Assembly: GCA_958295735.1 (NCBI GenBank)
Contig: OY282369.1
Coordinates: 2,114,983 to 2,146,982 of the forward strand
Source: an uncultured Candidatus Cenarchaeum sp.
Lineage (GTDB): Archaea > Thermoproteota > Nitrososphaeria > Nitrososphaerales > Nitrosopumilaceae
Direction: 5' to 3'
DNA length: 32,000 bases
The position numbers were made by a program, and so were the translations under genes. The notes beneath the pieces were generated by a model. It searched no databases and was not told the DNA's origin. It saw only the letters and a list, made by a program, of their open reading frames with translations. Positions 6,363 to 31,152 of the stretch are shown here, piece after piece (position 1 is the first letter of the stretch; the number at the start of each line of letters is the position of its first letter).

Positions 6363-6378
6363 CGTTTGTATGAGCATA

Positions 6379-6397: not shown

Positions 6398-6425
6398 TTG
6401 CCGGCCGCGCCCAAAAGCTGCCACC

Positions 6426-6968: not shown

Positions 6969-8818
6969 TCAGGCGGCTACCGCCGCCGGGGCCCTCGGCG
7001 GCCAGGTGGCGGGATGCGCGAACATGTCCCATTCCGGGTCGGCGCGGAGGGCCTTCAGCGCGGTCGACGGCCAGATTCCCAGGCGCCCGCGCGTCTGGAA
7101 CACGGTGCACGTTATGGAGAGGCGGCGCATGCCGGCCGCGCTCCTCAGCTGGCGGCGCGACCTCTTTTCCCTGGCCGGCCCCTCGTGTATCGCCTGCTCG
7201 ACGCGGTTGTTGTGGCAGGGCATGCCGGGATGCCTCGGGAACGTGAACATGTGGGGCAGCGCGTTGACGAGGGCGGTGCGCATCGCGTGCCCCCCGCCGT
7301 ACCCTCCCGCGATCTCCAGCACCTGCCTCTCCAGCTCCCGGATGGCGGCCTCGTCCGCCGTGTCGATGCGGGAGATCCTCCGGTACATGGAGCGGAGCCG
7401 CAGGTACAGCAGCAGGTACAGCTCCCGGTTCTCCGCATCCATGGCGCGGATCGCGAAGCTCTCGGCGTGCCGCAGCAGGCGGGTGAGGCAGATCTGCCTC
7501 ACGTCTATCCCGTTGTACCCCGAGTACCAGTCGGTCACCATCGGCTTGCCCTTCACCTCGGGAAAGTACAGGTCCAGCACGGCCGCCGCCCTGCTGCCCA
7601 GGAACCCCACGCGCACCGCATCCCCGCAGCAGACCAGCCACGCGTACCCGCGCTTCCCGCACATTTTGAAGGGGGTCTCGTCGGCCTGTCCGCACCCGTC
7701 GCTGTCCCGGATGTGATCCGCGACGCGCCGGTCTCCTGGCTCCAGCAGGTTGGCGGCGGCCTCGTGGGCGTTGTTGGCGGTGGTCTGCGCGATCCCGCAC
7801 CCGTGCTGCTCCTCCACGAGCTCGGCGACGGCCGCGTACGGCACGGCTTTCGCGATGCAGGCGACCGCGGACCCGAGCAGCCCGGCTCCCATGTGCGTGC
7901 CCGGAATCGACTCCGACTTTGCCATGCTGATCCTGTAGCACCTCGCGCACCAGGCCCGCTCGGCCGAGATGCAGGAGACCCTGATCTTCCCGGCGCCGTC
8001 CTTCTCGACGAGGTTCTTGTTGCAGGGCCGCTCCGTCAGATGCTCGGCCAACCCGCAGTACTCGCACGCGGAAAGGCGGGCGTAGCGCGTCTCCTCCGAC
8101 TTGCGCGAGTGCGACACCCCCTTGTGCCCGATGGGAGGACCCATCTTCTTTCCCGGCTTGCGATCGCTGTCGTACGTGCCGTTCTCCCTGCGGAACTTGG
8201 CCCTGTCGGCGCTGTGCCTTTCCGCATCGGGCTTGTTGTAGCCGTCGCACGAGTTGATCCGCTTCTCGGCCTTTTTCAGCTTCGCGGCCAGCTCGCCGCA
8301 CCCCGCGCAGGCGGCGCCCTTCTCCGCTCGGCCGGCTTGGCGGCCGGGGCGGCCGGGGCGGCCGGCTTGGGGGCGGCCGGCTTGGGGGCGGCCGGCTTGG
8401 GGGCGGCCGGCTTGGGGGCGGCCGGGGCGGCCGGCGTGATGAGTCCGCTGCCGCGCCTGTGGGCGGCCGGGGCGGCCGGCTTGGGGGCAGCGCTCCTCTC
8501 CGCCACGGCCGCATCACGGCCGCCGCTTCCGCCTCGCGCGGCCGCCGCCGCGTTCTCCGCCTTGTTGCCCAGCGCCGCCGCCAACTCGTCCTTGAGGCGA
8601 TCGTTTTCGCCCTGCAGCCTGTCAAGTTCCAGCCTGTTCTCGGCGCAACCGGCGTGCTGCGCCTCCACGGCCTAGAGGCGGTCGATTTCGCTACGCGTTT
8701 CGGCCGACTCCCGCCGCTTGTCCTCTACGTATTCCGCGTGTTTTGCATCCAGGGCCGTCATGCGGCGGGTCACCGCCACCAGCTCCCTCCGCACCAGCAC
8801 CGTTTCAGAGTCGGGCAT
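6969..8818 (-). pseudogene. IS66-family transposase gene, disrupted by an in-frame TAG and a frameshift
   Basis: The body (6969..8144 plus an upstream extension of the same frame) has IS66-type motifs: GPPIGHKG, CxxC pairs, DETPF, TDWYSGYN, RQICLTRLLRH, HNNRVEQAI. It parallels the intact copy at 29422..31152. The coiled-coil N-terminus (MPDSETVLVRRELVAV.., ATG 8818) aligns to MAESGVALLRKELAAA of the intact copy. That N-terminus hits TAG at ~8672-8674 and lies in a different frame from the body; the frame switch falls around 8290-8330. Confidence 0.7.
8356..8415. repeat. 15-bp tandem repeat x4 (GGGCGGCCGGCTTGG) flanked by degenerate 9/15-bp variants
   Basis: Read directly from the sequence. 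It encodes (PKPAA)n in the N-terminal frame of the decayed transposase. Confidence 0.8.
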
Positions 8819-14344: not shown

Positions 14345-15153
14345 CGTGGACCGGGCCATGGCCGGCAGCAGGAGCGGGAGGAACTTCCGCCCCGCCAAGT
14401 GCGGATAACGGGGGCAATAGACCGGTGCGGAAGGCGGCGGGCGCCGGCGTTCTTCAGGCGGCGGGGCGGGATCGGGCAAGTCGGGTGGGCGTACCTCCCG
14501 CGGCAGGCAGCGCGGCGAGTGCCATGAACTGCGGCGGGGGGACGATCTTTCGGGCGCGCGATTCGGCGGGGCCGGGTTCGCGGGGGCGTGCCGCAGGCGC
14601 GGGGGGGGGGGAGGAAGCGCGCGCGGTCCCGGGCGGGGCGGGGCAGGCCGGTCTCCCGCCCACCGACCCGGCGGCCGCGGCAGGCGCCGGCCCGAACCGG
14701 CGGGGCGCGGCGGCTGGCGAGAGCCGGCGGGTCCCTAGCGCCCGCGGCCGGCGCGGATTGCGGGACGGGGGCGGGGGAGCGGGAGGCGCTCGCCAGGAAA
14801 AACCGGCGGCGGAGATCGGGATGGCCGCGCCGGGCCCGCCCGCGCTCCCTCGGCATGGGGGCCGGCCCGCCGACGGCTCCCCGCGCCGCTCCCCGCGCCG
14901 CTCCCCGCGCCGCTCCCCGCGCCGCTCCCCGCGCCGCTCCCCGCGCCGCTCCCCGCGCCGCTCCCCGCGCCGCTCCGCGGGCCGGGCGGGCGGCCCCGCG
15001 GCCGCTGGGTGCGCGCCGGGCCTTGCGGCGCGCGCCACGATCCGTGACGCGCGGGGCAACGGGGCCCATGCGGGCGCGCAACCCCGCGCCGGGGGGAATC
15101 GTGCGGCCTCGCACAGTCCGGCGCCTGCTTGCGGCGAGCGCCGCTGTCCACGT
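14345..15153. repeat. Hyper-GC noncoding spacer, paralog A of three
   Basis: Collinear by eye with 17220-18264 and 22145-23137. Shared blocks include GAGCGGGAGGAACTTCCGCCCCG, GGATAACGGGGGC.ATAGACCGGTGCG, GGCGCCGGCGTTCTTC and CCGCGCCGGGGGGAATCG.GCGGCCTCGCACAGTCCGGCGC. Confidence 0.85.
14876..14971. repeat. 12-bp microsatellite (GCTCCCCGCGCC) x8, present only in spacer A
   Basis: Read directly. The same position in spacers B and C holds a single copy. Confidence 0.85.
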
Positions 15154-17127
15154 TTATGACGGGCCTACCGCATCCCTGTCGGCTTTGGATATCCTGTTGA
15201 GCAACGTCGCCAGCCTTGTGACGCCTTTGTTTTTTTCAACATAGTCGCCGTACGCATTGCGTGCGCTTTCAATCAGCTGGTCGTAAAACACTATTCGCGC
15301 CCCGAATGCTTTAAGAGCATTTTCGTCTTCGCTGCGTTCTCTCGAATTTTCCCAGTCTTTTGGAAGCCTGCCCAGCACGCAGATTACTTCGACCGGCTTT
15401 TCGCCGCCTGATTTCTCAAGAACTTTAGATGCTGCACTTTTGTACTTTTTGAGCTGCGCAAACAACCCCGTTATGTCCGTGCTCGCTTCCGGGCGCTTCA
15501 ACTCTATTATGACGTGCTTGTTCCCGGTCGTCCTGTACTGGATGTCCAGCCTGGCGCGCTTCTCCTCGTCGGTAAGCCCCGCGATCGCGCCGCCCAGCGC
15601 TTTTTTCATGCCGGATTCCATGGCTTCCGGGGCGGAGGCCCTCTCCCATGAGGGATCCAGGAGCCAGAGGTGATCGAACAGGTGCTTTTGGATGATTTTT
15701 TCCTTCGCGTTCTGATCGCGCAAGTCGCTGAACTTCTCGAGCACCTTCAGGCGGGTTTTGGCGGTCTGGTAGTACGCGCTGGCTTCCAAGTCGTCAATCT
15801 GCGGGAGCAGCTCCGCCAGGACCTCCAGGTTGCTGACGTCGATGTCGTCCAGGCGGTCTAGCGCGTCCCTGAATTTGAGGTTCTCGAACGCCAGCATTCC
15901 GCTCACGAACAGCTGCCTCCTCGCATCGTCGCCGTCCAGCGACAGCGCGTTGATGCGCCCGAAGATCCTCTTCGCCTGGTTCCTGTAGCCTTGGGGCAGG
16001 CCGTCGAACCACTCGCGGATCGCCGGCATTTCCAGCGCCGCCTTGGCGCCCTCCTCGTTCCTTAATTCCGCCCACTTTGCCTCCACGGCCTCGACGTCCC
16101 GCCGGAGTTTTTCCTTCAGCGCCACGTACCTGGGATCGTCCTCTATGATAAGATGCCTGCCGGTCGTCGCGATGTCCGGCATGTCGTCCCTGTCCAGGAA
16201 ATCCGCGTGTATCTCCCCGACCACGTGCCTGTCGCACGCTCCCCCTCCGAGGGAGCCCGGCACGCCTTCCTGGGCCATTTTTCCCCTGATCAGGACGGCG
16301 ATCCTGTTGAAGCTCCCGCCGCCGGCATCGTCCTCCAGCTGGCTCGGCTTTTCCACCGTCCCTATCCAGCCGCCGACGCGCTCCGTGATGCCGCCCGCCT
16401 CGACCTCGGGATCCAGGCGGAACGTCCTGGACGCCGACCCGGGGAACTCGTCGCCGCCGTCCCCGCCGAAGAGCCACGCGTACTGCAGTTTTCCGCGGCA
16501 GTTCGCGTCTTCGGCGGCGATCTGCGTCCCGTCGACCGAGACTTCGAACCCGTGCGCGCCGCCGATGATGCCGAACCTGCGCGCGAGCCCCTTCCTCAGC
16601 GATTTCGGGTAGAACGTCCTCGGCTTGATGTCCGTCAAGGTGATGCGCGTCCCGGCTTCCAGGTCGCCGGCCGCCCCGACGTTCGGGGGGTGGTACGCGG
16701 GGGCCCCGCCGCGCAGCGCGCTTTCGATGTCCTTTGCCCTCATCTCGAACTCGTGGCTCTCGCCGTCCTTGGCGCTGTGCACCGTGACCGTACCGGCTAT
16801 GGAGAACAGCGACAGTTTTCCTATCCCCTTGCGCCCCATCACGGGCCTGCCGCGGCGGGCGGTCTTCGCCTCCCCCATTTCCCGGCGCGCGTACCCGGAG
16901 CGCAGGTACTTCTCGTTGGCGTCGCTCACGGTCATCCCGCTCCCGTCGTCCTGTATGGTGATCGTCCCGCCCGGGCCCGTGCGTATATCGACGCGCCCCG
17001 CATCCGCGTCCCACGCGTTGGCGACGGCCTCGGCGAGGGCCGCGGGGATGCTGCCGTGCAGGCTTATGCCCAGATGCTTGAGCGCGTCGAGGCCCACCCG
17101 CATGGTGTACGCGTGATCGCCCGCCAT
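15154..17127 (-). CDS. GHKL (Bergerat-fold, MORC/MutL-like) ATPase fused to a C-terminal PD-(D/E)xK nuclease-like domain, paralog 1 (657 aa)
   Basis: N-box EAVANAWDAD (ExxxNxxD), G1 box QDDGSGM (DxGxG), G2 box GRKGIGKLS (GxxGxG). The C-terminus has KHLFDHLWLLDPSWE ... LDIQYRTTGNKHVIIELKRPE (D...ExK). Confidence 0.8.
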   Translation of the reverse strand: MAGDHAYTMRVGLDALKHLGISLHGSIPAALAEAVANAWDADAGRVDIRTGPGGTITIQDDGSGMTVSDANEKYLRSGYARREMGEAKTARRGRPVMGRKGIGKLSLFSIAGTVTVHSAKDGESHEFEMRAKDIESALRGGAPAYHPPNVGAAGDLEAGTRITLTDIKPRTFYPKSLRKGLARRFGIIGGAHGFEVSVDGTQIAAEDANCRGKLQYAWLFGGDGGDEFPGSASRTFRLDPEVEAGGITERVGGWIGTVEKPSQLEDDAGGGSFNRIAVLIRGKMAQEGVPGSLGGGACDRHVVGEIHADFLDRDDMPDIATTGRHLIIEDDPRYVALKEKLRRDVEAVEAKWAELRNEEGAKAALEMPAIREWFDGLPQGYRNQAKRIFGRINALSLDGDDARRQLFVSGMLAFENLKFRDALDRLDDIDVSNLEVLAELLPQIDDLEASAYYQTAKTRLKVLEKFSDLRDQNAKEKIIQKHLFDHLWLLDPSWERASAPEAMESGMKKALGGAIAGLTDEEKRARLDIQYRTTGNKHVIIELKRPEASTDITGLFAQLKKYKSAASKVLEKSGGEKPVEVICVLGRLPKDWENSRERSEDENALKAFGARIVFYDQLIESARNAYGDYVEKNKGVTRLATLLNRISKADRDAVGPS

Positions 17128-17219
17128 CGCTCCTCAGATGTCACTATGCTCCTGCCTATAACCCTTCCAAGATCCAGTCACCGCATTCCCTGTCAGCCTC
17201 GCCACGGGGCGGCAGACAG
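17128..17219 (-). pseudogene. Stub of the dcm 3' end (about 90 bp) retained upstream of paralog 1
   Basis: It aligns to the region of the intact dcm encoding PVARLIGNAVPVELGRAIGRSIV (25250-25335). A 2-nt deletion is present, and homology stops at ..GCCTCGCCACGGGG. Confidence 0.8.
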
Positions 17220-18264
17220 GGCCATGGTCGGGGGCGAGAGCGGGAGGAACTTCCGCCCCGTCCGGGGAGGTGGGCGCGGCGTACTCCCCCCCTGCTCGGC
17301 CTCACGTGGCGAGAGCGGGAGGAACTTCCGCCCCGTCCGGGAGGAGTGGATAACGGGGGCGATAGACCGGTGCGAAAGGCGGCTGGCGCCGGCGTTCTTC
17401 GGGCGGCGGGGCGGGATCGAGCCATAGTTGGGCGGGCGGACCGTCCGCGGCAGGCAGTGCGGCGAGTACCCCGGACTGCGGCGGGGGACGATCCTTCGGG
17501 CGCGCGCTTCGACAGATGTTCTGAATCGCTGATATGTCCATGTGCGTAAGGCGGGGGACGATCCTTCGGGCACGCGCTTTGACGGGGACGGGTTCGCGGA
17601 GGCGTGCCGCAGGCGCGGGGGAGAAGCGCGCGCGGTCCGGTCAGGGCCGGGCCGGGCTCCCGCCCGCCGGCCCGGCGGCCGCGGCGGGCGCCGGCCCGAA
17701 CTGGCGGGGCTACCCCCCGATGCGGGGCGGCGGCGGGGCGCGCGGGCCCGCGGCCGGGGCGCCGCGGCCGGGCGGAGCCGGCAGGCCTCGGGCGGTGCCG
17801 AATGCCCGCGGCACGCCCGCCGCCGGCGCGGGGGGCGGAGGGAGGGGGAGAGGCGGGGGCCAGGCGGCGCTCGCCTGGAAAAGCCCCGGCCGCCTGTGCA
17901 CGTGCAAGCACGACGCGGTAGGAGGCGGGGGCCAGGCGGCGCTCGCCTGGAAAAGCCAGCGGCGAAGAACGGCGGGACGGCGCCGGGCCCGCCTGCGCTT
18001 CCACGGCATCGGGGGGCCGGCCCGCCGACAGCTCCCCGGGCCGGGCCCGCGCCGCGCCGCTCCGCGGGCCGGGCGGGCGGATCGCGGGCGGCCCCGCGGC
18101 CGCGGGATGCGCGTCGGGCTTTGCGGCGTGCACCACGATCCGGGGCGCGCGGCAGGCGCGCGGGTGCAACAGGGTCCGTGCGGGCGCGCAACCCCGCGCC
18201 GGGGGGAATCGGGCGGCCTTGTACAATCCGGCGCTTGCAACGCGCGCTGCGGCGTTGTCTCCGT
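17220..18264. repeat. Hyper-GC noncoding spacer, paralog B
   Basis: Collinear with spacers A and C. It carries three copy-specific 70-75-bp additions (see findings). Confidence 0.85.
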
Positions 18265-20241
18265 TTACGACGGGCTTATCGCATCCCTGTCCGTTTTGGA
18301 TATCCTGCTGAGCAACGTAGCCAGCCTTGTAATGCCCTCGTTTTTTTCAACATAGTCGCCGTATGCCTTTTGGGCGTTTTCAATCAACTGGTTATAAAAC
18401 ACTATTCGCGCCCCGATTGCCCCAAGGATGTCGTTGGCTATTCTGCGCTCACTTGATTTTTCCCAGTCTTTTGGAGGCCTGCCCAGCACGCAGATGATTT
18501 CGACTGACTCTTCCTTGCCGAATCCTTCAAGGACTTTGGCTGTTGCATCATAGTATTTTCTAAGCTGAGCAAACAATTCCGTTGCATTCGTGCTCGCTTC
18601 CGGGCGCTTCAACTCTATTATGACGTGCTTGCTTCCGGTGGTTCTGTACTTGATGTCCAGCCTGGCGCGCTTCTCCTCGTCGCTAAGCCCCTCGATTGCA
18701 CCGTCCAGCGCTTTTTTCATGCCGGACTCCATGACCTCCGAGGCGGAGACCCTCTCCCAAGACGGATCCAAGAGCCACAAGTGATCGAACAGGTGCTTTT
18801 GGATGATTTTTTCCTTCGCGTTTTGATCGCGCAAGTCGTTGAATTTCTTGATCACCTCCAGGCGGGTTTTGGTGGTCTGGTAGTACGCGCTGGCTTCCAA
18901 GTCGTCAATCTGCAGGAACAGATCCGCCAAGACCTCCAGGTTGCTGACGTCGATGTCGTCCAGGCGGTCGAGCATGTCCCTGAGTTTGAGGTTTTCGAAC
19001 GCCAGTATTCCGCTCACGAACAGCTGCCTTCTTTCGTCGTCGCCGTCCAGCGCCAGGGCGTTGATGCGCCCGAAGACCCTCTTCGCCGGTTTCCTGTGGC
19101 GCGGGGGCAGGCCGTCGAACCACTCGCGGATCGCCGGTATGTCCAGCGCCACCTTGGCGCCCTCCTCGTTCCTTAATTCCGCCCACTTTGCCCTTACTGT
19201 CTTTACATCCTGCCGGATTTTTTCCTTCAGCGCCCCGTACCTGGGATCGTCCTCGATGATCAGCTGCCTGCTGGTCGTCGCGATGTCCGGCATGTCGTCC
19301 CTGTCCAGGAAATCCGCGTATATCTCCCCGACCACGTACTTGCTGTGCATTCCGCCATCTTCAAAGGATCCCAGCATGTCTTCCTGGGCCATTTTTCCCC
19401 TGATCAGGACGGCGATCCTGTTCAGGCTTCCGCCGCTAGCGTCGTCCTCCAGCTGGCTCGGCTTTTCCACCGTCCCTATCCAGCCGCCGACGCGCTCCGT
19501 GATGCCGTCTACCTCAACCTCTGGATCCAAGCGGAACGTCCTGGACGTCGCCCCGGAGAACTCGCTGCGGCCGTTCTCGCCGAACAGCCACACGTACTGC
19601 AGTTTTTCATGGTAGTTCCTGTCTTCGGCGGTGATGCGCGTCCCGTCAAGCGAGACTTCGAACTGGTGCGCGCCGCCGATGATGCTGAACCTGCGCGCAA
19701 GCCTCTTCCTCAGCGATTTCGGATAGAACGTCCTCGGCTTGATATCCGTCAGGGTGATGCGCGTCCCGGCTTCCAGGTCGCCGGCCGCCCCGACTTTGGA
19801 GGGGTGGTACGCGGGGGCCTTGTCGCGCAGCGCGCTTTCGATGTCCTTTACCCTCATCTCGAACCCGTGGCTCTCGCCGTCCTTGACGCTGTGCACCGTG
19901 ACGGTGTTGGCTATCGAGAACAGCGACAGTTTTCCTATCCCCTTGCGCCCCATCACGGGCCTGCCGTGGCGGGCGGTCCTCGTTTCCCCCCTTTCCCGGC
20001 GCGCGTACCCGACGCACAGGTACTTCTCGTTGGCATCGCTCACGGTCATCCCGCTGCCGTCGTCTTGTATGGTGATCGTCTTGCCCGAGTCCGTGCGTAT
20101 CTCTACGCTCTCTGCATCCGCGTCCCACGCGTTGGCTACTGCTTCGGCGAGGACCGTGGGGATGTTGCTGTACAGGCTTATGCCCAGATGCTTGAGCGCG
20201 TCGAGGCTCACCTGCATGGTGTACGCGTGTTCGTCCGCCAT
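18265..20241 (-). CDS. GHKL ATPase / PD-(D/E)xK nuclease fusion, paralog 2 (658 aa, most diverged, lower GC)
   Basis: Same motifs as paralog 1 (EAVANAWDAD, QDDGSGM, GRKGIGKLS, KHVIIELKRPE). It has many substitutions and one extra residue. Confidence 0.8.
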   Translation of the reverse strand: MADEHAYTMQVSLDALKHLGISLYSNIPTVLAEAVANAWDADAESVEIRTDSGKTITIQDDGSGMTVSDANEKYLCVGYARRERGETRTARHGRPVMGRKGIGKLSLFSIANTVTVHSVKDGESHGFEMRVKDIESALRDKAPAYHPSKVGAAGDLEAGTRITLTDIKPRTFYPKSLRKRLARRFSIIGGAHQFEVSLDGTRITAEDRNYHEKLQYVWLFGENGRSEFSGATSRTFRLDPEVEVDGITERVGGWIGTVEKPSQLEDDASGGSLNRIAVLIRGKMAQEDMLGSFEDGGMHSKYVVGEIYADFLDRDDMPDIATTSRQLIIEDDPRYGALKEKIRQDVKTVRAKWAELRNEEGAKVALDIPAIREWFDGLPPRHRKPAKRVFGRINALALDGDDERRQLFVSGILAFENLKLRDMLDRLDDIDVSNLEVLADLFLQIDDLEASAYYQTTKTRLEVIKKFNDLRDQNAKEKIIQKHLFDHLWLLDPSWERVSASEVMESGMKKALDGAIEGLSDEEKRARLDIKYRTTGSKHVIIELKRPEASTNATELFAQLRKYYDATAKVLEGFGKEESVEIICVLGRPPKDWEKSSERRIANDILGAIGARIVFYNQLIENAQKAYGDYVEKNEGITRLATLLSRISKTDRDAISPS

Positions 20242-20296
20242 TGTGCCTCAAATGTTGCATCGTGCTCCTGCCTATAACCCTTCCAATCTCCACCGG
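20242..20296 (-). pseudogene. dcm 3' stub upstream of paralog 2, proximal part (interrupted by IS)
   Basis: ..CCTATAACCCTTCCAATCTCCACCGG is homologous to the intact dcm and ends at the IS insertion point. Confidence 0.75.
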
Positions 20297-22105
20297 GTGT
20301 AGACTTACGTCCAAACCGAAACCACGCCTAGCGGCAACAATCCGCTCCGCGATCCCACGCCCAGATCACAATGGACGTAAGTCTGATGTTGAAAATGTAC
20401 TCCCGTTTCGTGCCGGGCCGAGCGCCAAAACGGCCGGGATTTGTCGGGCTAACGGATCAGTTCCCGCGGCGCCCCGATCCGCCGGCGCGTTCCGCAGCAA
20501 CGGCGGGCCGGATCGCCGATCTTTCGTCGCCGGGAGCGCGTTCGTTGCACCGCGCGCGCCGGGCGCGCCGTGCAGGGCGGCTTACCAGGACCTGCGCGGC
20601 GCGGCCCGCCCGCGGATCGGCGCGCCGCCGCGATCGGGGAGCGGGACCGGCCCCGCCCGGGGCCGGAACGGCATCGGGCGCGGGTGATGCTGCCGGCCGC
20701 GCCGCTTCGGCGCGCGGCAAGGGTCTAAAACGCGCTAGGTCACGCACTGGAGGTAGTAGCCCCGCTTGCCCATGTCCGTCCTGATGATCTCCAGCGCGAA
20801 CTTGACCATCAGCGTCGCGAACTCGGACAGCGCCCTGCGCTTCTTCGCCGGCCGGCGCCCCGATTCCGCGGCATCCGCATCGGCGGCGTGGTTGGACGCG
20901 TACCACGTGTTGCAGTAGACCATGGCGAAGTACATCATGAACGTCCTGATCGACAGGTTCTTGCTGCTCGTCGTGGGCAGGATCTGCTTGATCGACTTGT
21001 AGGCGTTCTCTATCCTCCAGCGCTGCCTGTACAAGCCGGGGATGTCCCTCTTCATGGTCCTCCCGATCCTGCCCTGCCTGACGTTGGTGGTGAACGTGAG
21101 GTACTTCCACCTCCGCTTGCCCTTGGCCTTCACCATGCGCTTTTCGATGACCAGCCAGAATGTGAACTCCGTCCCGTCGTCCGCCTTCATCGTGTACCGC
21201 GACACCTTATTCCGCTTCCTGCGCTTGTATTCCGCCAGGGCCTTCCTGATTCCCGCCGTCTTCCTGGCGGGCATGAGGAACTTCTCCCCGGCGCCGTCAA
21301 ACGCGGACATCACGGCGACCGTGCAGAACTCGCGATCCGCGAGGAACAGCCTCGGCTTGAGCCCGGCCCGGCGCAGCTCCCCGAACATCTGTTTGACGTA
21401 GTCGGCCACCTTGACCCCGTCGACCATGCGGATGGCCCCCACGTGCGGCATGTGCGCCTTCTCCGCCACGTACGCCGTCATGTACCCGTCGAACCGCGTG
21501 GTGCCGCCCTTGGGCCTGCCGCTCACCGTCCAGCCGCCGCCGTCCTCGCCGGTGAACGGATGCAGGTGCATGTCGAACGCGATCGCCGCGCTCGCGGGTA
21601 TGTGGCCCCTCTTTATCATGGACGCGGCGGTGCGGGCGAGCATGGACTGGCCGCACTCCTCCACCAACTCGTGCGGAATTTTTGCCAGCATGCCCAGCAG
21701 CCACTGCCCCGTCGGGATCCTCTCGTCCTTGTAGAGCTCCTTCATGGCCTTGAGCGCCCTGTTGGCCGACGCCCCCTTCTCGCACATGAACACCAGCGCC
21801 GCGATCAGGGCGTGCGCGTCGTACAGCGCGTTGTGCCTGCCCGACAGGGGGATCTGGAGCGCTACTATGAGGGAGTGCAAGGTGTTAAATGCGCCGCCGG
21901 CGAGCAACTGTTGGCGTTCCGATACGCCACTGTCGTGGTACATAGTGGCGTGTCGGAGCGTCGCCTTTTAACCGCTGCTGTCCGGGGAACCGAACCGCGC
22001 GCGCGGCAACCATCCGGCCGTTTCGGCCGGCCGGGCCCGCGCCAAACCTGCAGGATCGCCCATTACGCATAGCACTAGTACATTTTCAACTTCTGAAGTC
22101 TACAC
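20297..22105. mobile_element. IS4-family insertion sequence (~1.8 kb) inserted into the dcm stub
   Basis: The termini GTGTAGACTT... and ...AAGTCTACAC are 10-bp perfect inverted repeats. They are flanked by direct repeats TCCACCGG (20289-20296 and 22106-22113; 9 bp if a C is shared). The joined flanks reconstitute the dcm sequence GCTCCACCGGCACCGCATTCCC. Confidence 0.85.
20735..21943 (-). CDS. DDE transposase, IS4 family (402 aa)
   Basis: Exact Y-(2)-R-(3)-E-(6)-K signature in YRQRWRIENAYKSIK. Candidate catalytic Asp residues lie in AFDMHLH and FLADREF. Confidence 0.8.
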   Translation of the reverse strand: MYHDSGVSERQQLLAGGAFNTLHSLIVALQIPLSGRHNALYDAHALIAALVFMCEKGASANRALKAMKELYKDERIPTGQWLLGMLAKIPHELVEECGQSMLARTAASMIKRGHIPASAAIAFDMHLHPFTGEDGGGWTVSGRPKGGTTRFDGYMTAYVAEKAHMPHVGAIRMVDGVKVADYVKQMFGELRRAGLKPRLFLADREFCTVAVMSAFDGAGEKFLMPARKTAGIRKALAEYKRRKRNKVSRYTMKADDGTEFTFWLVIEKRMVKAKGKRRWKYLTFTTNVRQGRIGRTMKRDIPGLYRQRWRIENAYKSIKQILPTTSSKNLSIRTFMMYFAMVYCNTWYASNHAADADAAESGRRPAKKRRALSEFATLMVKFALEIIRTDMGKRGYYLQCVT

Positions 22106-22144
22106 TCCACCGGCACCGCATTCCCTGTCGGCCTCGCCACGGGG
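22106..22144 (-). pseudogene. dcm 3' stub upstream of paralog 2, distal part
   Basis: TCCACCGGCACCGCATTCCCTGTCGGCCTCGCCACGGGG corresponds to the PVARL.GNAVPVE coding sequence of dcm. It shares the same end point as the stub at 17219. Confidence 0.75.
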
Positions 22145-23137
22145 CGGCAGACAGGGTTAGTTGGGGGCGGGAGCGGGAGGAGCTTCCGCCCCGCTATGGA
22201 GCGAAGGCCGGCTCCAATGCCAACGAGGAGGTGCGGCGGCGGGAGCGGGAGGAACTTCCGCCCCGTCCGGGAGGAGTGGATAACGGGTGCGATTGACCGG
22301 TGCGAAAGGCGGCTGGCGCCGGCGTTCTTCGGGCAGCGGGGCGGGATCGGGCCAAAGTCGGGCGGGCGGGCCGTCCGCGGCAGGCAGCGCGGCGAGTGCC
22401 CGTGACTGCGGCGGGAAGACGATCCCTCGGGCGCGCGCTTCGGCGGGGCCTGGTTCGCGGAGGCGTGCCGCAGGCGAGGGGGAGAAGCGCGCGTGGTCCG
22501 GTCAGGGCCGGGCCGGGCTCCCGCCCGACGCCCCTGAGGCCGCGGCTGGCGCCGGCCCGAACCGGCGGGGCTGCCCCCCGATGCGGGGCGGCAGCGTGGC
22601 GCGCGGGCCCGCGGCCGGGGCGCTCGGTCGCGACCGACCATTCGACGTCCTCCAAGAAGCGGCAGCGTGGCGCGCGGGCCCGCGGCCGGGGCGCCGCGGC
22701 CGGGCGGAGCCGGCGGGCCTCGGGCGGCGCCGAACGCCCGCGGCACGCCCGCGGCCGGCGCGGGACTGCCCTCCTTTCCAACGACGTGGGCCGGACGTTC
22801 CCGAACGCCCGCGGCACGCCCGCGGCCGGCGCGAGGGGCAGGGGGAGGGGGCGGGGGCCGGGCGGCGCTCGCCCGGAAAAGCCGGCGGCGAAAAACGGCG
22901 GGGCGGCGCCGGGCCCGCCCGCGCTCCCGCAGCATCGGGGGGCCGGCCCGCCGACGGCTCCCCGGGGCGGCCCGCGCCGCGCCGCTCCGCCCCGAGGGCC
23001 GGGCGGGCGGATCGCGGGCGGCCCCGCGGCCGCGAGGTGCGCGCCGGGCCCGTGCGGGCGCGCAACCCCGCGCCGGGGGGAATCGGGCGGCCTCGCACAG
23101 TCCGGCGCCTGCTTGCGGCGAGCGCCGCTGTCCACGT
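22145..23137. repeat. Hyper-GC noncoding spacer, paralog C
   Basis: Collinear with spacers A and B. It carries three copy-specific 71-72-bp additions. Confidence 0.85.
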
Positions 23138-25111
23138 TTATGGCGGGCCTGCCGCATCCCTGTCGGCTTTGGATATCCTGTTGAGCAACGTCGCCAGCCT
23201 TGTGACGCCTTTGTTTTTTTCAACATAGTCGCCGTACGCATTGCGTGCGCTTTCAATCAGCTGGTCGTAAAACACTATTCGCGCCCCGATCGCGTCAAGA
23301 ACATTCTGGATTTCTTCGCGCCTTTTCGAATTTTCCCAGTCTTTTGGAGGCCTGCCCAGCACGCAGATTACTTCGACCGGTTCTTCCTTGCCGAATCTTT
23401 CGAGGATCTCGGATGCTTCATCTCTGTATTCGTTGAGCTGCGCAAACAACCCCGTTATGTCCGTGCTCGCTTCCGGGCGCTTCAACTCTATTATGACGTG
23501 CTTGTTCCCGGTCGTCCTGTACTGGATGTCCAGCCTGGCGCGCTTCTCCTCGTCGGTAAGCCCCTCGATCGCGCCGCCCAGCGCTTTTTTCATGCCGGAT
23601 TCCATGGCTTCCGGGGCGGAGGCCCTCTCCCAGGAGGGATCCAGGAGCCACAGGTGATCGAACAGGTGCTTTTGGATGATTTTTTCCTTCGCGTTCTGAT
23701 CGCGCAAGTCGATGAACTTCTCGAGCACCTTCAGGCGGGTTTTGGCGGTCTGGTAGTACGCGCTGGCTTCCAAGTCGTCGATCTGCGGGAGCAGCTCCGC
23801 CAGGACCTCCAGGTTGCTGACGTCGATGTCGTCCAGGCGGTCTAGCGCGTCCCTGAGTTTGAGGTTCTCGAACGCCAGCATTCCGCTCACGAACAGCTGC
23901 CTCCTCGCATCGTCGCCGTCCAGCGCCAGGGCGTTGATGCGCCCGAAGATCCTCTCCGCCGGTTTCCTGTGGCGCGGGGGCAGGCCGTCGAACCACTCGC
24001 GGATCGCCGGCATTTCCAGCGCCGCCCCGGCGCCTTCCTCGTTCCTTAATTCCGCCCACTTTGCCCTTACGGTCTTGACGTCCCGCCGGAGTTTTTCCTT
24101 CAGCGCCCCGTACCTGGGATCGTCCTCTATGATAAGATGCCTGCCGGTCGTCGCGATGTCCGGCATGTCGTCCCTGTCCAGGAAATCCGCGTATATCTCC
24201 CCGACCACGTGCCTGTCGCACGCTCCCCCTCCGAGGGAGCCCGGCACGCCTTCCTGGGCCATTTTCCCCCTGATCAGGACGGCGATCCTGTTGAAGCTCC
24301 CGCCGCCGGCATCGTCCTCCAGCTGGCTCGGCTTTTCCACGGTCCCTATCCAGCCGCCGACGCGCTCCGTGATGCCGCCCGCCTCGACCTCGGGATCCAG
24401 GCGGAACGTCCTGGACGCCGACCCGGGGAACTCGCCGCGGCCGTCCCCGCCGAAGAGCCACGCGTACTGCAGTTTTCCGCGGCAGTTCGCGTCTTCGGCG
24501 GCGATCTGCGTCCCGTCGACCGAGACTTCGAACCCGTGCGCGCCGCCGATGATGCCGAACCTGCGCGCGAGCCTCTCCCTCAGCGATTCCGGACGGAGCG
24601 CCCGCGGCCTGACGTCCGTCAAGGTGATGCGCGTCCCGGCTTCCAGGTCGCCGGCCGCCCCGACGTTCGGGGGGTGGTACGCGGGGGCCCCGCCGCGCAG
24701 CGCGCTTTCGATGTCCTTTGCCCTCATCTCGAACCCGTGGCTCTCGCCGTCCTTGGCGCTGTGCACCGTGACCGTACCGGCTATGGAGAACAGCGACAGT
24801 TTTCCTATCCCCTTGCGCCCCATCACGGGCCTGCCGCGGCGGGCGGTCCTCGCCTCCCCCATTTCCCGGCGCGCGTACCCGGAGCGCAGGTACTTCTCGT
24901 TGGCGTCGCTTATGGTCATCCCGCTCCCGTCGTCCTGTATGGTGATCGTCCCGCCCGGGCCCGTGCGTATATCGACGCGCCCCGCATCCGCGTCCCACGC
25001 GTTGGCGACGGCCTCGGCGAGGGCCGCGGGGATGCTGCCGTGCAGGCCCGCGCCCAGATGCCTGAGCGCGTCGAGGCCCACCCGCATGGTGTACGCGTGA
25101 TCGCCCGCCAT
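23138..25111 (-). CDS. GHKL ATPase / PD-(D/E)xK nuclease fusion, paralog 3 (657 aa), directly downstream of the intact dcm
   Basis: Same motifs as the other paralogs. I counted about 50 substitutions and no indels versus paralog 1. The start codon lies 16 nt after the dcm stop. Confidence 0.85.
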   Translation of the reverse strand: MAGDHAYTMRVGLDALRHLGAGLHGSIPAALAEAVANAWDADAGRVDIRTGPGGTITIQDDGSGMTISDANEKYLRSGYARREMGEARTARRGRPVMGRKGIGKLSLFSIAGTVTVHSAKDGESHGFEMRAKDIESALRGGAPAYHPPNVGAAGDLEAGTRITLTDVRPRALRPESLRERLARRFGIIGGAHGFEVSVDGTQIAAEDANCRGKLQYAWLFGGDGRGEFPGSASRTFRLDPEVEAGGITERVGGWIGTVEKPSQLEDDAGGGSFNRIAVLIRGKMAQEGVPGSLGGGACDRHVVGEIYADFLDRDDMPDIATTGRHLIIEDDPRYGALKEKLRRDVKTVRAKWAELRNEEGAGAALEMPAIREWFDGLPPRHRKPAERIFGRINALALDGDDARRQLFVSGMLAFENLKLRDALDRLDDIDVSNLEVLAELLPQIDDLEASAYYQTAKTRLKVLEKFIDLRDQNAKEKIIQKHLFDHLWLLDPSWERASAPEAMESGMKKALGGAIEGLTDEEKRARLDIQYRTTGNKHVIIELKRPEASTDITGLFAQLNEYRDEASEILERFGKEEPVEVICVLGRPPKDWENSKRREEIQNVLDAIGARIVFYDQLIESARNAYGDYVEKNKGVTRLATLLNRISKADRDAAGPP

Positions 25112-25127
25112 CGCTCCTCGGATTCCG

Positions 25128-26270
25128 CTATGCCCCTGCCCGCGACCCGCTCGCGGGGAACAGCGTGCGCTGGCCCGCCGGCAGCTCCGGATGCCGCACC
25201 GTGCTCCCGTCTCCGGCAGCGGCGGCTGCCTGACCGCCAGCAGCAGCCGGCAGCTCCAGATGCCGCACTATGCTCCTGCCTATGGCCCTCCCGAGCTCCA
25301 CCGGCACCGCATTCCCTATCAGCCTCGCCACGGGGTGGATGCTCACGCGCTCGTAGTCCGCCACGAACGAGTAGTTCTTCGGGAATGTCTGCAGCAGGGC
25401 CCCCTCGCGCAGGGATATGGCGCGGTGCTGCTCGGGATGCCCGAACCTGCCGGTCCCGAACCCGTAGAACTGCGTGGTGATGGTGGGCCCAGGCTTGTGC
25501 CATTCCATGCGGCCGTAGATGCTGCCGAACGTCTTGCCGGCATCCCTCCTGTGGCACGGGGTCCTGAGCCCCTCGTCCCAGTCGCGCCACGACCCGCCGG
25601 GCCTGGATTTGCGGATCCTCTCCAAGTTCTTGGCGGACAGGGCGCTCGCCTTGTGCAGGCGGTCCGTGCCGGACGACTCGCCGGCCCTGATCGGCTCCGT
25701 GTGGCGTATCGCATCCCAGACCGTCGCGCGCCTGCCGCGCTTCCCGCCCTGCAACCTTATGGGGCCCCGCCTCGACGCGAGGAGGACGAGCCGCCTCCTC
25801 GTCTGCGGGATGCCGTACTTGGCGCAGTTGACCGTCCTGTAGTCGTAACCGTAGCCCGCCCGCCTGAGCGCGCCGACGAACTTTTCGAACACCGGGTACT
25901 TCGCGAGCCCGGGGACGTTTTCCATGGCCACCACGTCCGGGAGCACCCGCTCCGCGAGGTCCCCGAACCTGGACAGCAGGTCCCGCTTGTTCCCGCCACG
26001 GCCGGAGGGGTTGTAGCACGAGAACGGCTGGCACGGGGCGCACCCCGCGAGGATCCTGGGGGAGCCCGGCGCGAACAGGGACTCCACGAACTCGGGCGTC
26101 AGGTCCTTGGCGTCCATTTCGACGAACCGCGCCTTGACGTTGGACTCGAACGGGTGCTTGCAGGCGGGATCGGAGTCTATCCCGGCGGCCACGTCGATCC
26201 CCGCCGACTTGAGCCCGTACGACAGCCCCCCCGCCCCGCAGAACAGATCCACCGCGCAGGGCCTGGCCAT
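25128..26270 (-). CDS. dcm: DNA (cytosine-5)-methyltransferase
   Basis: Motif I DLFCGAGG, motif IV PCQPFS, motif VI ENV, motif VIII QTRRR, motif X GNAVP. The start at MARPC (26270) is supported by CTTTAAT 25 nt upstream. The track extension to 26705 is low complexity. Confidence 0.9.
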   Translation of the reverse strand: MARPCAVDLFCGAGGLSYGLKSAGIDVAAGIDSDPACKHPFESNVKARFVEMDAKDLTPEFVESLFAPGSPRILAGCAPCQPFSCYNPSGRGGNKRDLLSRFGDLAERVLPDVVAMENVPGLAKYPVFEKFVGALRRAGYGYDYRTVNCAKYGIPQTRRRLVLLASRRGPIRLQGGKRGRRATVWDAIRHTEPIRAGESSGTDRLHKASALSAKNLERIRKSRPGGSWRDWDEGLRTPCHRRDAGKTFGSIYGRMEWHKPGPTITTQFYGFGTGRFGHPEQHRAISLREGALLQTFPKNYSFVADYERVSIHPVARLIGNAVPVELGRAIGRSIVRHLELPAAAGGQAAAAAGDGSTVRHPELPAGQRTLFPASGSRAGA

Positions 26271-26295
26271 CCCGGCGGCGGGCCGGCCCGCCCGC

Positions 26296-26302
26296 ATTAA
26301 AG
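26296..26302 (-). promoter_or_regulatory. TATA box (CTTTAAT) of dcm
   Basis: A/T island 25 nt upstream of ATG 26270 in otherwise GC-rich DNA. Confidence 0.5.
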
Positions 26303-26707
26303 GTGTAATGCTTCGGGCGGCATGGGGCCGCGCGCCCGCCGGCCGCAGGCGCGAAAACGCCCCCGCTGATCCGGATTCGCGCCTCGGGAGGAGGGAGGGG
26401 GGGGGGGCCGCCGGCCCCGCGCTTCGGGCATCCGCGGGGCGGCGCCCCCCGCGCCGAGCCCGCGCCGCCCGGCCGGGCGGCGGGATCCCCCCGATCGGCG
26501 GGCCCGGATCGGGGCGCTTCCGGCGGCCGCCGCGGCGCGCCGGGCGCTGCCGCCGCGCGGCGGGCAGGCGGCGGCGATCCCGGGAGGGCGCCCCCCCGCG
26601 CCCGGCCGGGCGCGGCGAGCCGGCATCGGCCCGCGCCGGGCGCCGGATCAGCGGCGCGGCGCGCCGGGCGATCCCGCCGCCCCGCGCGCCCGCCCCGGCC
26701 GGCAAGA

Positions 26708-26715
26708 CTTAATTT
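26708..26715 (+). promoter_or_regulatory. TATA box (CTTAATTT) of the AAA+ ATPase gene
   Basis: A/T island 22 nt upstream of ATG 26738. Confidence 0.5.
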
Positions 26716-26737
26716 GAGATCGGGGGGGCGCGGCGCG

Positions 26738-27580
26738 ATGCCGGCGCCGGCCTCCGGGGTGTACCTGGACTGGAACGAGTCGCTGCCCACGCTGGAGGCG
26801 GCGCGCGCCGCGGGCCTGTTCGCGCTGGTGATAGGCCCCAAGGGGACGGGCAAGACCACCCTGGTGAGGCGCTTCGCCGACTCGTCCTCCGCCGCGCTGG
26901 ACACGGTGAACTTTAGCCTGCGGACGCGGGAGAGCCACCTGGTGGGGGCCAAGACGCTCTCCGGCGGCTCGGTGGGGTTCGACGAGGGGCTGCTGGTCAG
27001 GTCGATGCGGGGGGGCGGCATGCTGTACCTCGACGAGGTGAACGCGGCCGAGGCCGACGTCCTGCTGAGGCTCGACGAGGCGCTGGACGACCGCAGGCAG
27101 CTGGTGCTCAAGGAGGCCGACGGCCGGACGGTGAGGGCGGCCCCCGGCTGGTTCGTGGTGGCATCGATAAACCCGCTCACCCACGCGGGGACCAAGGAAC
27201 TCCCGCCCCAGCTGCTCAGCCGCTTCCCCGTCCGGGTGAGCCTGGAGTACCCGCCGGAGGGCGTGGAGCTCGACATTGTGAGGAGGCACCTGGCGGCCCG
27301 CGGCGCGGGGCGGCAGCCCCCGGACGACGACCTGGCCATGGGCGTGCGCCTCGCCAACACCCTGAGGCAGGCGGCCGCCGTGGAAGAACTGGAGTACTCG
27401 CCGAGCCTGCGGGAGACCATATCGTACGCGGTGCTGGTCGGGGCCGGCATGCCGGCCGCCCGGGCGGCCCGCTCCGTCTTCGGCGACGTGTACGCCCAGT
27501 GGGGCGGGCTGGAGCACCGCAAGGTGGCCGACATCATCGGATCCATGTTCGGGGGCGGGGGCGGCGGCGCGGGGCCCTGA
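26738..27580 (+). CDS. MoxR-class AAA+ ATPase (AAA_5; CbbQ/NorQ-like)
   Basis: Walker A GPKGTGKT, Walker B MLYLDEVN, sensor ASINP, LLSRF. The ATG at 26738 is preferred over the TTG at 26714 because of the TATA spacing. Confidence 0.8.
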   Translation: MPAPASGVYLDWNESLPTLEAARAAGLFALVIGPKGTGKTTLVRRFADSSSAALDTVNFSLRTRESHLVGAKTLSGGSVGFDEGLLVRSMRGGGMLYLDEVNAAEADVLLRLDEALDDRRQLVLKEADGRTVRAAPGWFVVASINPLTHAGTKELPPQLLSRFPVRVSLEYPPEGVELDIVRRHLAARGAGRQPPDDDLAMGVRLANTLRQAAAVEELEYSPSLRETISYAVLVGAGMPAARAARSVFGDVYAQWGGLEHRKVADIIGSMFGGGGGGAGP

Positions 27581-27674: not shown

Positions 27675-29183
<1,509 letters not shown>

Positions 29184-29421
29184 GGCGCCCCGCGGCCCGG
29201 CCCCGGCGCCGCCGCTTCCGCGGTCCCTTGCCGGGGCGGGCTCCCGGCCGGCGGCGGCCCCCTCCCCGCGGGCGCGGGGCCCCGCGCCGGCCCCGGTACA
29301 CACTTACCTCCCCCCCCCCTCCCGCCGCGACTTGGCCGCCCGGGCGGGCCCGCGCGCCGCGCAAGCTTAGGCTGGCCTAAGGGTCGATTTGTATAATTGT
29401 GGCGAGTTTGGGCCTGCCGGC

Positions 29422-31152
29422 ATGGCGGAATCCGGGGTGGCGCTGCTGCGCAAGGAACTGGCGGCCGCGTTGGAAAAGATCGCCGGGCTGGAAGCCGAGG
29501 CCGCGGAGCGGGCGGCCGAGATCGCGATGCTGAAGGCCAAGTCCACGGAGCAGGCGCTGCTGCGCAAGGAACTTGCGGCCTCGCTCGAAAAGATCGCCGG
29601 GCTGGAAGCCGAGGCCGCGGAGCGGGCGGCCGAGATCGCGATGCTGAAGGCCAAGTCCACGGAGCAGGCGCTGCTGCGCAAGGAACTGGCGGCCGCGTTG
29701 GAAAAGATCGCCGGGCTGGAAGCCGAGAACTCCGGGCTGAAGGCCAAGGCCGCCGAGCAGGCGGTCAGGCTTGCCGTGTGCGACGGCCCGAACGCGCCCT
29801 CGTCGTCCCTCACCACGTACGGCCCCCGGCGGAACGCCTGGCGCAAGGAGCGGGGCTACAAGGGGAGCGACGGGGCCGGATCCGACGGCAAGCCCGCTCC
29901 GGACGGCGGCGCCCCGCGCAAGATGGGCCCGCCCCAAGGGCACAAGGGCGTCTCGCACTGCAACAAGCCCGAGTTCACCATGAAGTGCGGGATCCTGACG
30001 TGCCCCGTGTGCTGCGGCCCCCTGGAGAAGTTCGACAGGTGGCGAAAGCTGGTCAACGACTTCGATCAGTTCTGGCGCGTGGTCACCGCGATGATCGAGG
30101 TGGAGACGGGCTGGTGCGGCAAGTGCGAGAAGTACTACGAGGCCCAGGCGCCGTTTCCGAAGGGCACCTCGTGCGGCCCGAGGGCGCTCGGCCTCATAAT
30201 GGCGCTGTTCGAGATGGGCTGCACGGACGCGAGGATCGCCGGCTTTATCGAGTCCACGTTCTACTTCCGCATCTCGGAGGCGGCCGTGGCGAAGGCCAGG
30301 AGGGCCATGGCGGGCGCGTCGAAGAAGCAGCTGGAGGAGATCAAGTGGGCGTTCAGCGAGAGCATGTTCGTGCACATGGACGAGACCGGGTTCAAGATCG
30401 GCGTGCTGGGCAAGACCGGCTACGTCTGGGTGGCCGTCGTGGGCAACGCCGTGTGGGTGCACTTCGCGCCCACCCGGGGGGCGGCGGTCCTGAGGGAGCA
30501 CTTCGGCTGGCTGTCCCGCAGGGCGGTGGTGGCCGACGGGCTGCCGGCGTACCGCGCGTGGTTCCAGCATCTGCAGAGATGCTGCAGGCACCTGCTCGCC
30601 AAGGGCGAGGCCGTCGCCGTGGACGGCGACCCGGGGGACGAGGCGAGGCACGACTGGATGCAGGGGTACTACCACAAGATACACGGCATCAAGACGCTGG
30701 CGCCGTTCACCGTGACGTACCTGGCCAAGGAGTTCCACGACGCCGTGTCGGCGTACCCCGACGGCAAGCTGAAGACGCACCTCGCCAACGCCGAGCCGCA
30801 CGTGCTCACGTTCATGGGATTCCGCGGCATGCCGCCCCACAACAACCCCGCCGAGCTCGCCATACGCGACCTCATAGTGACGCAGCGCAACGCGCACCAC
30901 AAGATCTCCACGCCGGAGGGGCGCAAGACGTTCTCCGAGCTGGTCACGATCGGGGGCACCGCCCGCATGAACGGCATGTTCCCGGGCAGGGCCTTCACCG
31001 AGATCGCCCGCAATCGCGACTGGAAAATGTTCGACCCCGGCCCGTGGGCCGGGCCCGACTGGTGCGTCTTCGATGACCCCGCATCCGGGCTGGTGCGCCC
31101 GCCCGGCTCCGCGGCGGGGCGGGCGCCGGCTCCGGCAGCGGCGTCCGCCTGA
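29422..31152 (+). CDS. IS66-family transposase with an N-terminal coiled coil
   Basis: Motifs GPPQGHKG, CPVCCG/CGKCEK zinc-finger-like pairs, DETGF, ADGLPAYR, QRCCRHLL, HNNPAELAIR. ATG 29422 lies 23 nt downstream of TATAATT (29392-29398). Confidence 0.85.
   Translation: MAESGVALLRKELAAALEKIAGLEAEAAERAAEIAMLKAKSTEQALLRKELAASLEKIAGLEAEAAERAAEIAMLKAKSTEQALLRKELAAALEKIAGLEAENSGLKAKAAEQAVRLAVCDGPNAPSSSLTTYGPRRNAWRKERGYKGSDGAGSDGKPAPDGGAPRKMGPPQGHKGVSHCNKPEFTMKCGILTCPVCCGPLEKFDRWRKLVNDFDQFWRVVTAMIEVETGWCGKCEKYYEAQAPFPKGTSCGPRALGLIMALFEMGCTDARIAGFIESTFYFRISEAAVAKARRAMAGASKKQLEEIKWAFSESMFVHMDETGFKIGVLGKTGYVWVAVVGNAVWVHFAPTRGAAVLREHFGWLSRRAVVADGLPAYRAWFQHLQRCCRHLLAKGEAVAVDGDPGDEARHDWMQGYYHKIHGIKTLAPFTVTYLAKEFHDAVSAYPDGKLKTHLANAEPHVLTFMGFRGMPPHNNPAELAIRDLIVTQRNAHHKISTPEGRKTFSELVTIGGTARMNGMFPGRAFTEIARNRDWKMFDPGPWAGPDWCVFDDPASGLVRPPGSAAGRAPAPAAASA
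29440..29727 (+). repeat. 114-bp (38-codon) in-frame tandem repeat, about 2.5 copies, inside the transposase coiled coil
   Basis: CGCTGCTGCG recurs at 29441, 29555 and 29669. The encoded unit is ALLRKELAAALEKIAGLEAEAAERAAEIAMLKAKSTEQ. Confidence 0.85.

Follow-up and report, generated by a model that had tools for sequence, protein, structure and literature searches.

A probable HgiDII/BbrUII-family restriction-modification locus with a triplicated nuclease gene in a GC-rich thaumarchaeon

We analyzed a 32,000-nucleotide stretch of contig OY282369.1 (the window; GC content ~72%) that carries a C5 cytosine DNA methyltransferase gene, dcm, followed on the same strand by three copies, here called C, B and A, of a gene joining a GHKL-type ATPase to a putative PD-(D/E)xK nuclease. 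A first-pass annotation of this DNA had presented the arrangement as an unrecognized and uncharacterized module. Profile matches running the length of the proteins indicate instead that the locus is very probably a Type II restriction-modification (R-M) system of the HgiDII/BbrUII family. The claim of an uncharacterized module fails because curated family membership and the published record already cover the system: the family, the domains of which it is built and its association with cytosine methylases have all been reported. As a defense system the locus adds little, and its residual interest lies in a lineage-specific expansion of the nuclease gene.

Family membership and published relatives

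All three nuclease open reading frames (ORFs) are intact, and each matches the NCBIfam model NF050001, "BbrUII/HgiDII family restriction enzyme", over the entire profile (positions 1-659 of 659) at 675-767 bits, where the cut-off of this equivalog model is 550 bits. Further paralogs described below (P0005 and P0007 to P0010) score 732-754 bits, likewise above the cut-off. Copy B is the nearest of the three to the family consensus and has the lowest GC content (58%). PADLOC assigns the three copies to the REBASE-derived Type II restriction endonuclease models (REase_II) and not to SduA. The family itself is large, with 5,717 matches at E<=1e-5 among 8,000 candidates scored and 468 clusters at 50% identity (E<=1e-30), almost all of them full-length matches.

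The methyltransferase (MTase) gene is equally well defined. The dcm product matches Pfam DNA_methylase at 2.6e-46 over profile positions 4-323 of 324, and its translation contains motifs I, IV, VI, VIII and X as DLFCGAGG, GCAPCQPFS, AMENVPGL, QTRRRLVL and GNAVP. In PADLOC it matches the cytosine-methylase models of Type II, DISARM and Druantia systems (MTase_II/DrmMII, 1e-78 to 4e-88). Only 16 nt separate the dcm stop codon (25128) from the ATG of copy C (25111); the complete dcm, its five motifs and its spacing from the 657-residue gene are all as first described. Copy C is probably co-transcribed with dcm, which is the sole intact MTase gene at the locus.

The closest known counterparts are HgiDII from Herpetosiphon giganteus Hpa2 and BbrUII from Bifidobacterium breve UCC2003, whose restriction proteins resemble ours end to end (~660 residues with a GHKL N-terminus) and whose partner 5-methylcytosine (m5C) MTase gene likewise lies directly upstream on the same strand. 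Unlike these systems, the present locus has an archaeal, Nitrosopumilaceae-affiliated host, a dcm with a repeat-derived C-terminal extension of ~45 residues, and a restriction gene in three tandem and additional dispersed copies served by one MTase. The HgiDII restriction enzyme is said to have been cloned in 1991, as was its methyltransferase, and BbrUII to have been studied in 2009. M.HgiDII has been characterized experimentally as an m5C methylase that acts on GTCGAC, and M.BbrUII is homologous to it (PMC5867850, where the cloning and characterization of the HgiDII methyltransferase in 1991 are credited to Dusterhoft and Kroger). For BbrUII, the B. breve methylome paper names no recognition site, and its description of the MTase is a different one.

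Pieces of the domain architecture have been described more than once. The N-terminal GHKL domain of R.HgiDII was reported in 2008, in a classification of Type II enzymes that left the C-terminal domain "unassigned to any known fold" (PMC2441816). The combination of a GHKL ATPase with a restriction endonuclease (RE) fold is not new, because it was named paraMORC3 in the very paper that the first-pass annotation had cited (PMC2292703). There, paraMORC3 comprises GHKL and S5 domains and, at the C-terminus, a RecB-like nuclease domain of the RE fold that carries E-D-ExK motifs. The likeness to our proteins is one of architecture (GHKL, S5-like and C-terminal RE-fold domains with E-D-ExK), and paraMORC3 genes are also R-M-associated and patchily spread by lateral transfer, but many of them stand alone (PMC2292703). 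Shedu proteins with GHKL N-termini were catalogued within type I-D in 2023 (Gu et al. 2023 preprint), and one of these GHKL-DUF4263 proteins, VcSduA of Vibrio cholerae, was experimentally validated in 2025 as protecting against phages, with defense abolished by either an ATPase (E27A) or a nuclease (K557A) mutation (Adams et al., PMC12137116).

Domain make-up, methyltransferase linkage and proposed mechanism

Copy C is laid out as a GHKL ATPase, an S5-like middle domain, a helical linker and a PD-(D/E)xK nuclease. We gauged conservation in two alignments, one of 54 relatives with at least 47% identity and one of 123 cluster representatives at 32-46% identity. In both, every residue of the Bergerat motifs ExxxNxxD (E33/N37/D40), DxGxG (D60/G62/G64) and GxxGxG (G98/G101/G103) is invariant, and Pfam HATPase_c_3 matches at 59-68 bits against a cut-off of 25, bearing out the full ATP-binding site noted earlier. 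The full-length AlphaFold2 (AF2) model (predicted local distance difference test, pLDDT, 77) resembles the N-terminal modules of Hsp90/TRAP1, MORC2/3, SMCHD1 and MutL (Foldseek E~1e-10). The GHKL and transducer domains of MutL, MORC, Hsp90 and SMCHD1 share the predicted fold over residues ~1-330 together with full Bergerat motifs, but at 12-16% identity, and these proteins are chaperone, chromatin and mismatch-repair ATPases, none of them a restriction enzyme.

In the C-terminal part, the motif stretches KHLFDHLWLLDPSWE and RLDIQYRTTGNKHVIIELKRPE are both present. When the D, E and K residues of the proposed active site were checked among homologs, E476, D528, E542, K544, Q558 and Y562 all proved at least 90% conserved family-wide in the same two alignments, and E...D...ExK...QxxxY is the pattern of RecB-like and Shedu PD-(D/E)xK nucleases. 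The D...ExK signature first described is present, but its D-x12-H spacing was misread; it is D528-x9-H538, or D528-x13-E542 when counted to the glutamate. An AF2 model of residues 455-657 (pLDDT 78) has the order alpha-beta-beta-beta-alpha-beta. Among 22 family C-termini, 20 have a match to Pfam SduA_C (PF14082) at E<=1 (best 6.2e-7) and 16 have one to PDDEXK_4 (best 2e-5); the PADLOC SduA models match four family members (best 1.9e-7). Profiles, residues and secondary-structure order thus agree with a PD-(D/E)xK nuclease resembling DUF4263/Shedu, as had been suspected, although the Pfam threshold leaves the protein outside Shedu proper, as a distant relative. The C-terminus of R.HgiDII, for which no fold was assigned in 2008, can now be interpreted as a PD-(D/E)xK nuclease of the Shedu/DUF4263-like kind. 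This interpretation connects two classical restriction enzymes with the GHKL-Shedu group of paraMORC3 and VcSduA.

We then asked how regularly family members occur with a methyltransferase, using 80 loci from different GTDB species, of which the 75 with upstream sequence were informative. A dcm ortholog lies directly upstream on the same strand in 53 of these 75 loci (71%), across many phyla and usually within ~30 nt, and the orthologs are 45-62% identical over their whole length, target-recognition region included. In the remaining 22 loci the ortholog is elsewhere in the locus (4), only a distant dcm is present (6) or there is none (12). The neighborhood survey thus supports the methyltransferase linkage that had been predicted for homologs. 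Plasmids of Halobaculum and Haloplanus and one Methanoregulaceae metagenome-assembled genome (MAG) also carry a family member beside a dcm, so the family is not new to archaea, contrary to what the first-pass annotation had implied.

In the mechanism that we propose, the Dcm-type MTase would methylate cytosine in the recognition site, shielding host DNA, and the 657-residue enzyme would cut unmethylated sites with its PD-(D/E)xK nuclease (E476, D528, E542-x-K544 and Q558-xxx-Y562). The GHKL and S5-like module would dimerize on ATP and gate or position the nuclease; by analogy with MutL, MORC and Hsp90, and with the VcSduA mutants, such ATP-driven gating is probable. GTCGAC is the site of the two characterized members, and by analogy we give about even chances to it as the recognition site here. 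One MTase tolerates all copies only if they have retained the same specificity. The basic logic of the first-pass annotation, in which Dcm methylation prevents self-damage by the nuclease, is upheld, while its suggestion of an abortive nuclease is unsupported. The family suggests that methylation is one route by which the GHKL-Shedu group escapes self-damage.

Several observations weigh against assignment to an HgiDII-type R-M system. The C-terminal model has weak Foldseek matches to solved structures (best E 0.01), among them the PD-(D/E)xK enzymes Nt.BspD6I, EcoT38I, XisH, Card1 and Bacillus cereus Shedu, and copy C reaches 21.9 bits with SduA_C (2.2e-4, profile positions 2-158 of 159), below the gathering score of 27. 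No dcm is nearby at 12 of the 75 family loci, and at some of these the gene lies between an Eco57I/MmeI-like adenine MTase and a helicase; since family members may stand beside adenine MTases instead, the family is not bound to one MTase type. The window contains 13 GTCGAC sites where 10.6 are expected, neither a depletion nor an excess, and this count is uninformative. Copies A and C, finally, have the lowest family-model scores and a mutual dN/dS (ratio of nonsynonymous to synonymous substitution rates) of up to 0.9. Some of these points would suit a nuclease of the Shedu I-D type, like VcSduA, that acts independently of methylation and merely sits beside an unrelated dcm. VcSduA has the same domain architecture, with a GHKL N-terminus, an Hsp90/MORC-like middle and a DUF4263-like PD-(D/E)xK C-terminus, its catalytic Glu and Lys are at similar positions (E27/K557, against E33/K544 here), and it works as a single gene; weak SduA profile matches and the lack of an adjacent dcm, at the 12 loci just mentioned and beside all dispersed archaeal copies, point the same way. 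We nevertheless regard this explanation as very improbable. Unlike VcSduA, which has no partner MTase, the proteins described here have a dcm partner, an SduA_C score below threshold and a PADLOC assignment to REase_II rather than SduA. Orthologous dcm genes sit directly upstream at 71% of informative loci, usually within ~30 nt, and the family takes its name from a pair of Type II enzymes with characterized or homologous MTases.

Anatomy and history of the array

The host is a GC-rich thaumarchaeon, as deduced from the affinity of S3Ae (83-90% identical to Nitrosopumilaceae MAG proteins) and from neighboring genes that include the TATA-binding protein (TBP) and geranylgeranyl reductase. The three restriction (R) genes have 58-64% GC and a GC content at third codon positions (GC3) of 0.78-0.84, against 0.94-0.97 for flanking core genes, which confirms the lower GC content noted on first reading, and horizontal acquisition from outside likewise holds. 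All paralogs form one clade with 66-97% mutual identity and 51-55% identity to a bacterial homolog, which argues for one acquisition followed by expansion. The predicted dcm protein is identical to P0391, copy A to P0002 and copy B to P0006, all of one genome.

The triplicated tandem unit is ~3.1 kb long and joins ~90 nt from the dcm 3' end to an R gene and a GC-rich, non-coding stretch of ~1 kb (Table 1). The dcm remnant, which precedes each downstream copy (A and B), covers motif X (PVARLxGNAVPVE). Three copies are thus present, as first described, but they are not contiguous, as spacers of ~1 kb and dcm remnants lie between them. The duplication junction falls at ~17210-17221 and has 8-10 nt of microhomology to the breakpoint in the intact dcm, and the remnant half at 22114-22156 is 98% identical to 17179-17221 and 79% identical to the intact dcm at 25305-25347. 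The intact dcm has itself been altered: its 3' end is ~45 codons longer owing to a 35-nt repeat in 2.9 copies at 25177-25276 (Tandem Repeats Finder and junction alignment), and the repeated stretch is the junction segment of the duplication. Copies A and B retain the ancestral ~50 nt before the ATG, with GGTTATAGG ~30 nt upstream. From its position, GGTTATAGG may be a TATA box of the archaeal type that drives leaderless transcription of copies A and B, and both copies may be expressed.

Table 1. Coordinates of the R-M genes, array components and insertion elements (positions in the window unless a contig is named)
Feature	Position	Strand	Remarks
M gene, C5 cytosine DNA methyltransferase (dcm), 380 aa	26270..25128	minus	Pfam DNA_methylase
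R gene copy C, 657 aa	25111..23138	minus	NF050001 675 bits; PADLOC REase_II 1.5e-75; HATPase_c_3 7e-16
Spacer of unit C, ~1 kb, ~79% GC, non-coding	22157..23137	.	no periodicity in any frame
Distal half of dcm 3' remnant, unit B	22114..22156	minus	motif X region PVARLxGNAV
Insertion sequence, 1809 bp	20297..22105	minus	splits dcm remnant upstream of copy B
DDE transposase gene of the insertion sequence	21943..20735	minus	Pfam DDE_Tnp_1 1.8e-10
Proximal half of dcm 3' remnant before copy B	20249..20296	minus	repeat family, upstream alignment
R gene copy B, 658 aa	20241..18265	minus	NF050001 767 bits; PADLOC REase_II 4e-94
Spacer of unit B, ~1 kb, GC-rich, non-coding	17222..18264	.	internal short direct repeats
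Unbroken ~90-nt dcm 3' remnant before copy A	17133..17221	minus	repeat families, four-way junction alignment
R gene copy A, 657 aa	17127..15154	minus	NF050001 684 bits
Terminal spacer of unit A	14349..15153	.	homology to L001 resumes at 14289
GGGCGGAAGTTCCTCCCGC sites	14374-14392, 17240-17258, 17315-17333, 22173-22191, 22245-22263
Solo 88-nt element	L083 9858-9944; L084 9758-9846, 9859-9945; L001 2934-3022, 12472-12558

The spacers (~1 kb, ~80% GC) show no codon periodicity, and that of unit C is 65-94% identical to the other two. Long ORFs in all six reading frames were considered as genes and rejected, the GC content being 0.76-0.86 at every codon position as against a GC3 of 0.9-0.97 in genes. 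A near-palindromic 19-mer, GGGCGGAAGTTCCTCCCGC, occurs five times where 0.05 occurrences are expected, always at a spacer end before a dcm remnant or the end of the array; it is doubled in the two internal units, so that spacer C, for example, terminates in two copies. A 12-nt tandem repeat (GCTCCCCGCGCC) is present in nine copies at 14876-14984 in the spacer of copy A only, and the other two spacers have it as a single degenerate copy. Throughout the window, non-coding DNA, at 78-88% GC, lies above coding DNA, the reverse of the usual pattern (for example 14349-15153, 17222-18264, 22157-23137, 26271-26713 and 6348-6947). Cultured Nitrosopumilaceae relatives are AT-rich.

A sister strain, represented by the independent long-read contig L001, carries dcm and three nuclease copies; its flanks match at 97.7-99% identity, and its dcm protein does not differ from ours. 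An assembly artefact was rejected, as the copies differ by 5-12% in DNA and the sister contig has the same array. Identity among copies is mosaic. Copies A and C are 95% identical in DNA over most of their length and 97-99% identical in most segments, and copies 2 and 3 of L001 show 100% identity for the first 1,600 nt, falling to 86-93% thereafter. Divergence is greatest in the last ~400 nt, where identity is 77-86% compared with 97-100% in the rest of the gene; this stretch comes in three types, found at different array positions in the two strains. This mosaic identity, together with the reshuffled tail types, points to unequal crossing-over and gene conversion.

Outside the array, the genome contains at least two other intact paralogs, P0007 (72% identical to copy C) and P0010 (66%). 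P0010 is found in the sister contig L082, ~165 kb from the array, with no dcm but with transposases and a GmrSD gene nearby, and solo copies P0005, P0008 and P0009 lie on other contigs of the same metagenome. No dcm occurs within 10 kb of the solo copies P0010, P0009, P0005 and P0008 (contigs L082-L086). The full-length ORF is kept in all 11 paralogs examined. Around the solo copies on L082-L086 we also noted transposases, a GmrSD Type IV enzyme, and Tsp45I/N6_N4 and D12 methylase genes; the L085 copy adjoins two distant GHKL ORFs, an Eco57I-like methylase and an SLFN-g3 helicase. The extra GHKL ORFs on L085 were considered as decayed copies but are different GHKL genes, at only 32-35% identity.

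On these observations, an R-M system would have been acquired horizontally by a GC-rich Nitrosopumilaceae-affiliated archaeon, and a ~3.1-kb unit would then have been duplicated in tandem at a short microhomology and later triplicated. The copies would since have been partly homogenized and reshuffled by gene conversion, with more copies dispersed in the genome, and an insertion sequence (IS) would have landed later in the dcm remnant before copy B.

Between paralogs, dN/dS is 0.3-0.9 overall and 0.13-0.3 in the catalytic core for most pairs, values from which we conclude relaxed purifying selection rather than positive selection; for the variable tail, positive selection was considered and rejected at 0.3-0.8. 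It is conceivable, if unlikely, that the extra copies are genetic debris, with copy C alone active and A, B and the dispersed copies silent or inactive by-products of unequal recombination and IS activity in which stop codons have yet to arise. Under that explanation one would expect what is seen in part: dN/dS is high for an enzyme (0.5-0.9 in pairs with A or C), A and C have the lowest NF050001 scores (675-684 bits, against 731-767 for the others) and may be decaying, to judge from these values, and A and B have no upstream gene and sit behind 1 kb of non-coding DNA, B also behind an IS. Yet dN/dS stays below 1 and falls to 0.13-0.3 in the catalytic core of most pairs, none of the 11 paralogs has lost its full-length ORF, the sister strain retains the three-copy array, and the downstream copies keep ~50-90 nt of original upstream sequence with the TATA-like GGTTATAGG. 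The ATPase residues, moreover, are invariant among the 123 representatives and the nuclease residues at least 90% conserved, which does not suit inactive by-products.

At the other extreme, the expansion might be an adaptive diversification of the effector, in which the variable C-terminal ~125 residues serve to evade virus-encoded anti-restriction proteins, form heterodimers or broaden specificity under one MTase. The concentration of divergence in the last ~400 nt, with its three shuffled types, and a lineage-specific expansion within one clade, to at least five intact paralogs in one genome and further solo copies on related contigs, would fit such a process. No segment, however, has a consistent dN/dS above 1, a copy with altered specificity would kill its host unless a matching MTase accompanied it and the solo copies have none beside them, and nothing connects the variable region to DNA recognition or inhibitor binding. 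We therefore consider adaptive diversification improbable. The diversification of paralogs suggested in the first-pass annotation fits the mosaic copies and varied 3' ends but not the dN/dS of 0.3-0.9. It is doubtful that this thaumarchaeal lineage has turned one acquired HgiDII-type enzyme into a multigene family with selection maintaining the shuffled C-terminal tails; if it has, the selected paralog family would be the R-M counterpart of arrays of immune-gene paralogs. Restriction-enzyme genes are not commonly amplified while their methylase stays single, here both in tandem and at dispersed sites and with gene conversion between copies, and the locus lends itself to asking whether selection in archaeal symbiont-like genomes favors nuclease dosage or nuclease variety.

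Insertion sequences and neighboring features

Copies of an 8-bp target duplication, TCCACCGG (20289-20296 and 22106-22113), border the IS that splits the dcm remnant before copy B, and the sister strain lacks this IS. The IS transposase matches an NCBIfam ISH3-family model at 1.9e-36, below the cut-off. The terminal 88 nt of the IS (20297-20384) are also found on their own, as an element that has a 13-nt inverted repeat. The 88-nt element lies at a homologous spot, 48-56 nt before the ATG and within the dcm remnant, in copy B, P0009 and P0005, a recurring position that could be due to shared descent or to insertion-site preference.

Divergent from dcm are a MoxR-like AAA_5 ATPase gene (26714-27580) and a gene with a weak VWA-domain match (27675-29183). 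The pair is kept in the sister strain and is probably unconnected to the R-M system. Over the whole window, Rfam gave no match at gathering thresholds, and no tRNA genes were found.

Repetitive and mobile DNA is also present outside the array. A 29-nt unit, GGCCGGCGCCGCGGGGCCCGTCCCCGCCA, forms a perfect tandem array of 14.4 copies at 6426-6843 (~87% GC, non-coding) that adjoins an IS66-family transposase gene (8144..6969); a CRISPR was considered for this array and rejected, as there are no spacers. At the other end of the window, ~2.1 kb (29296-31426) absent from L001 looks like a recent insertion and contains an IS66-family transposase ORF (29389-31152) that holds an internal 114-nt repeat in 2.5 copies.

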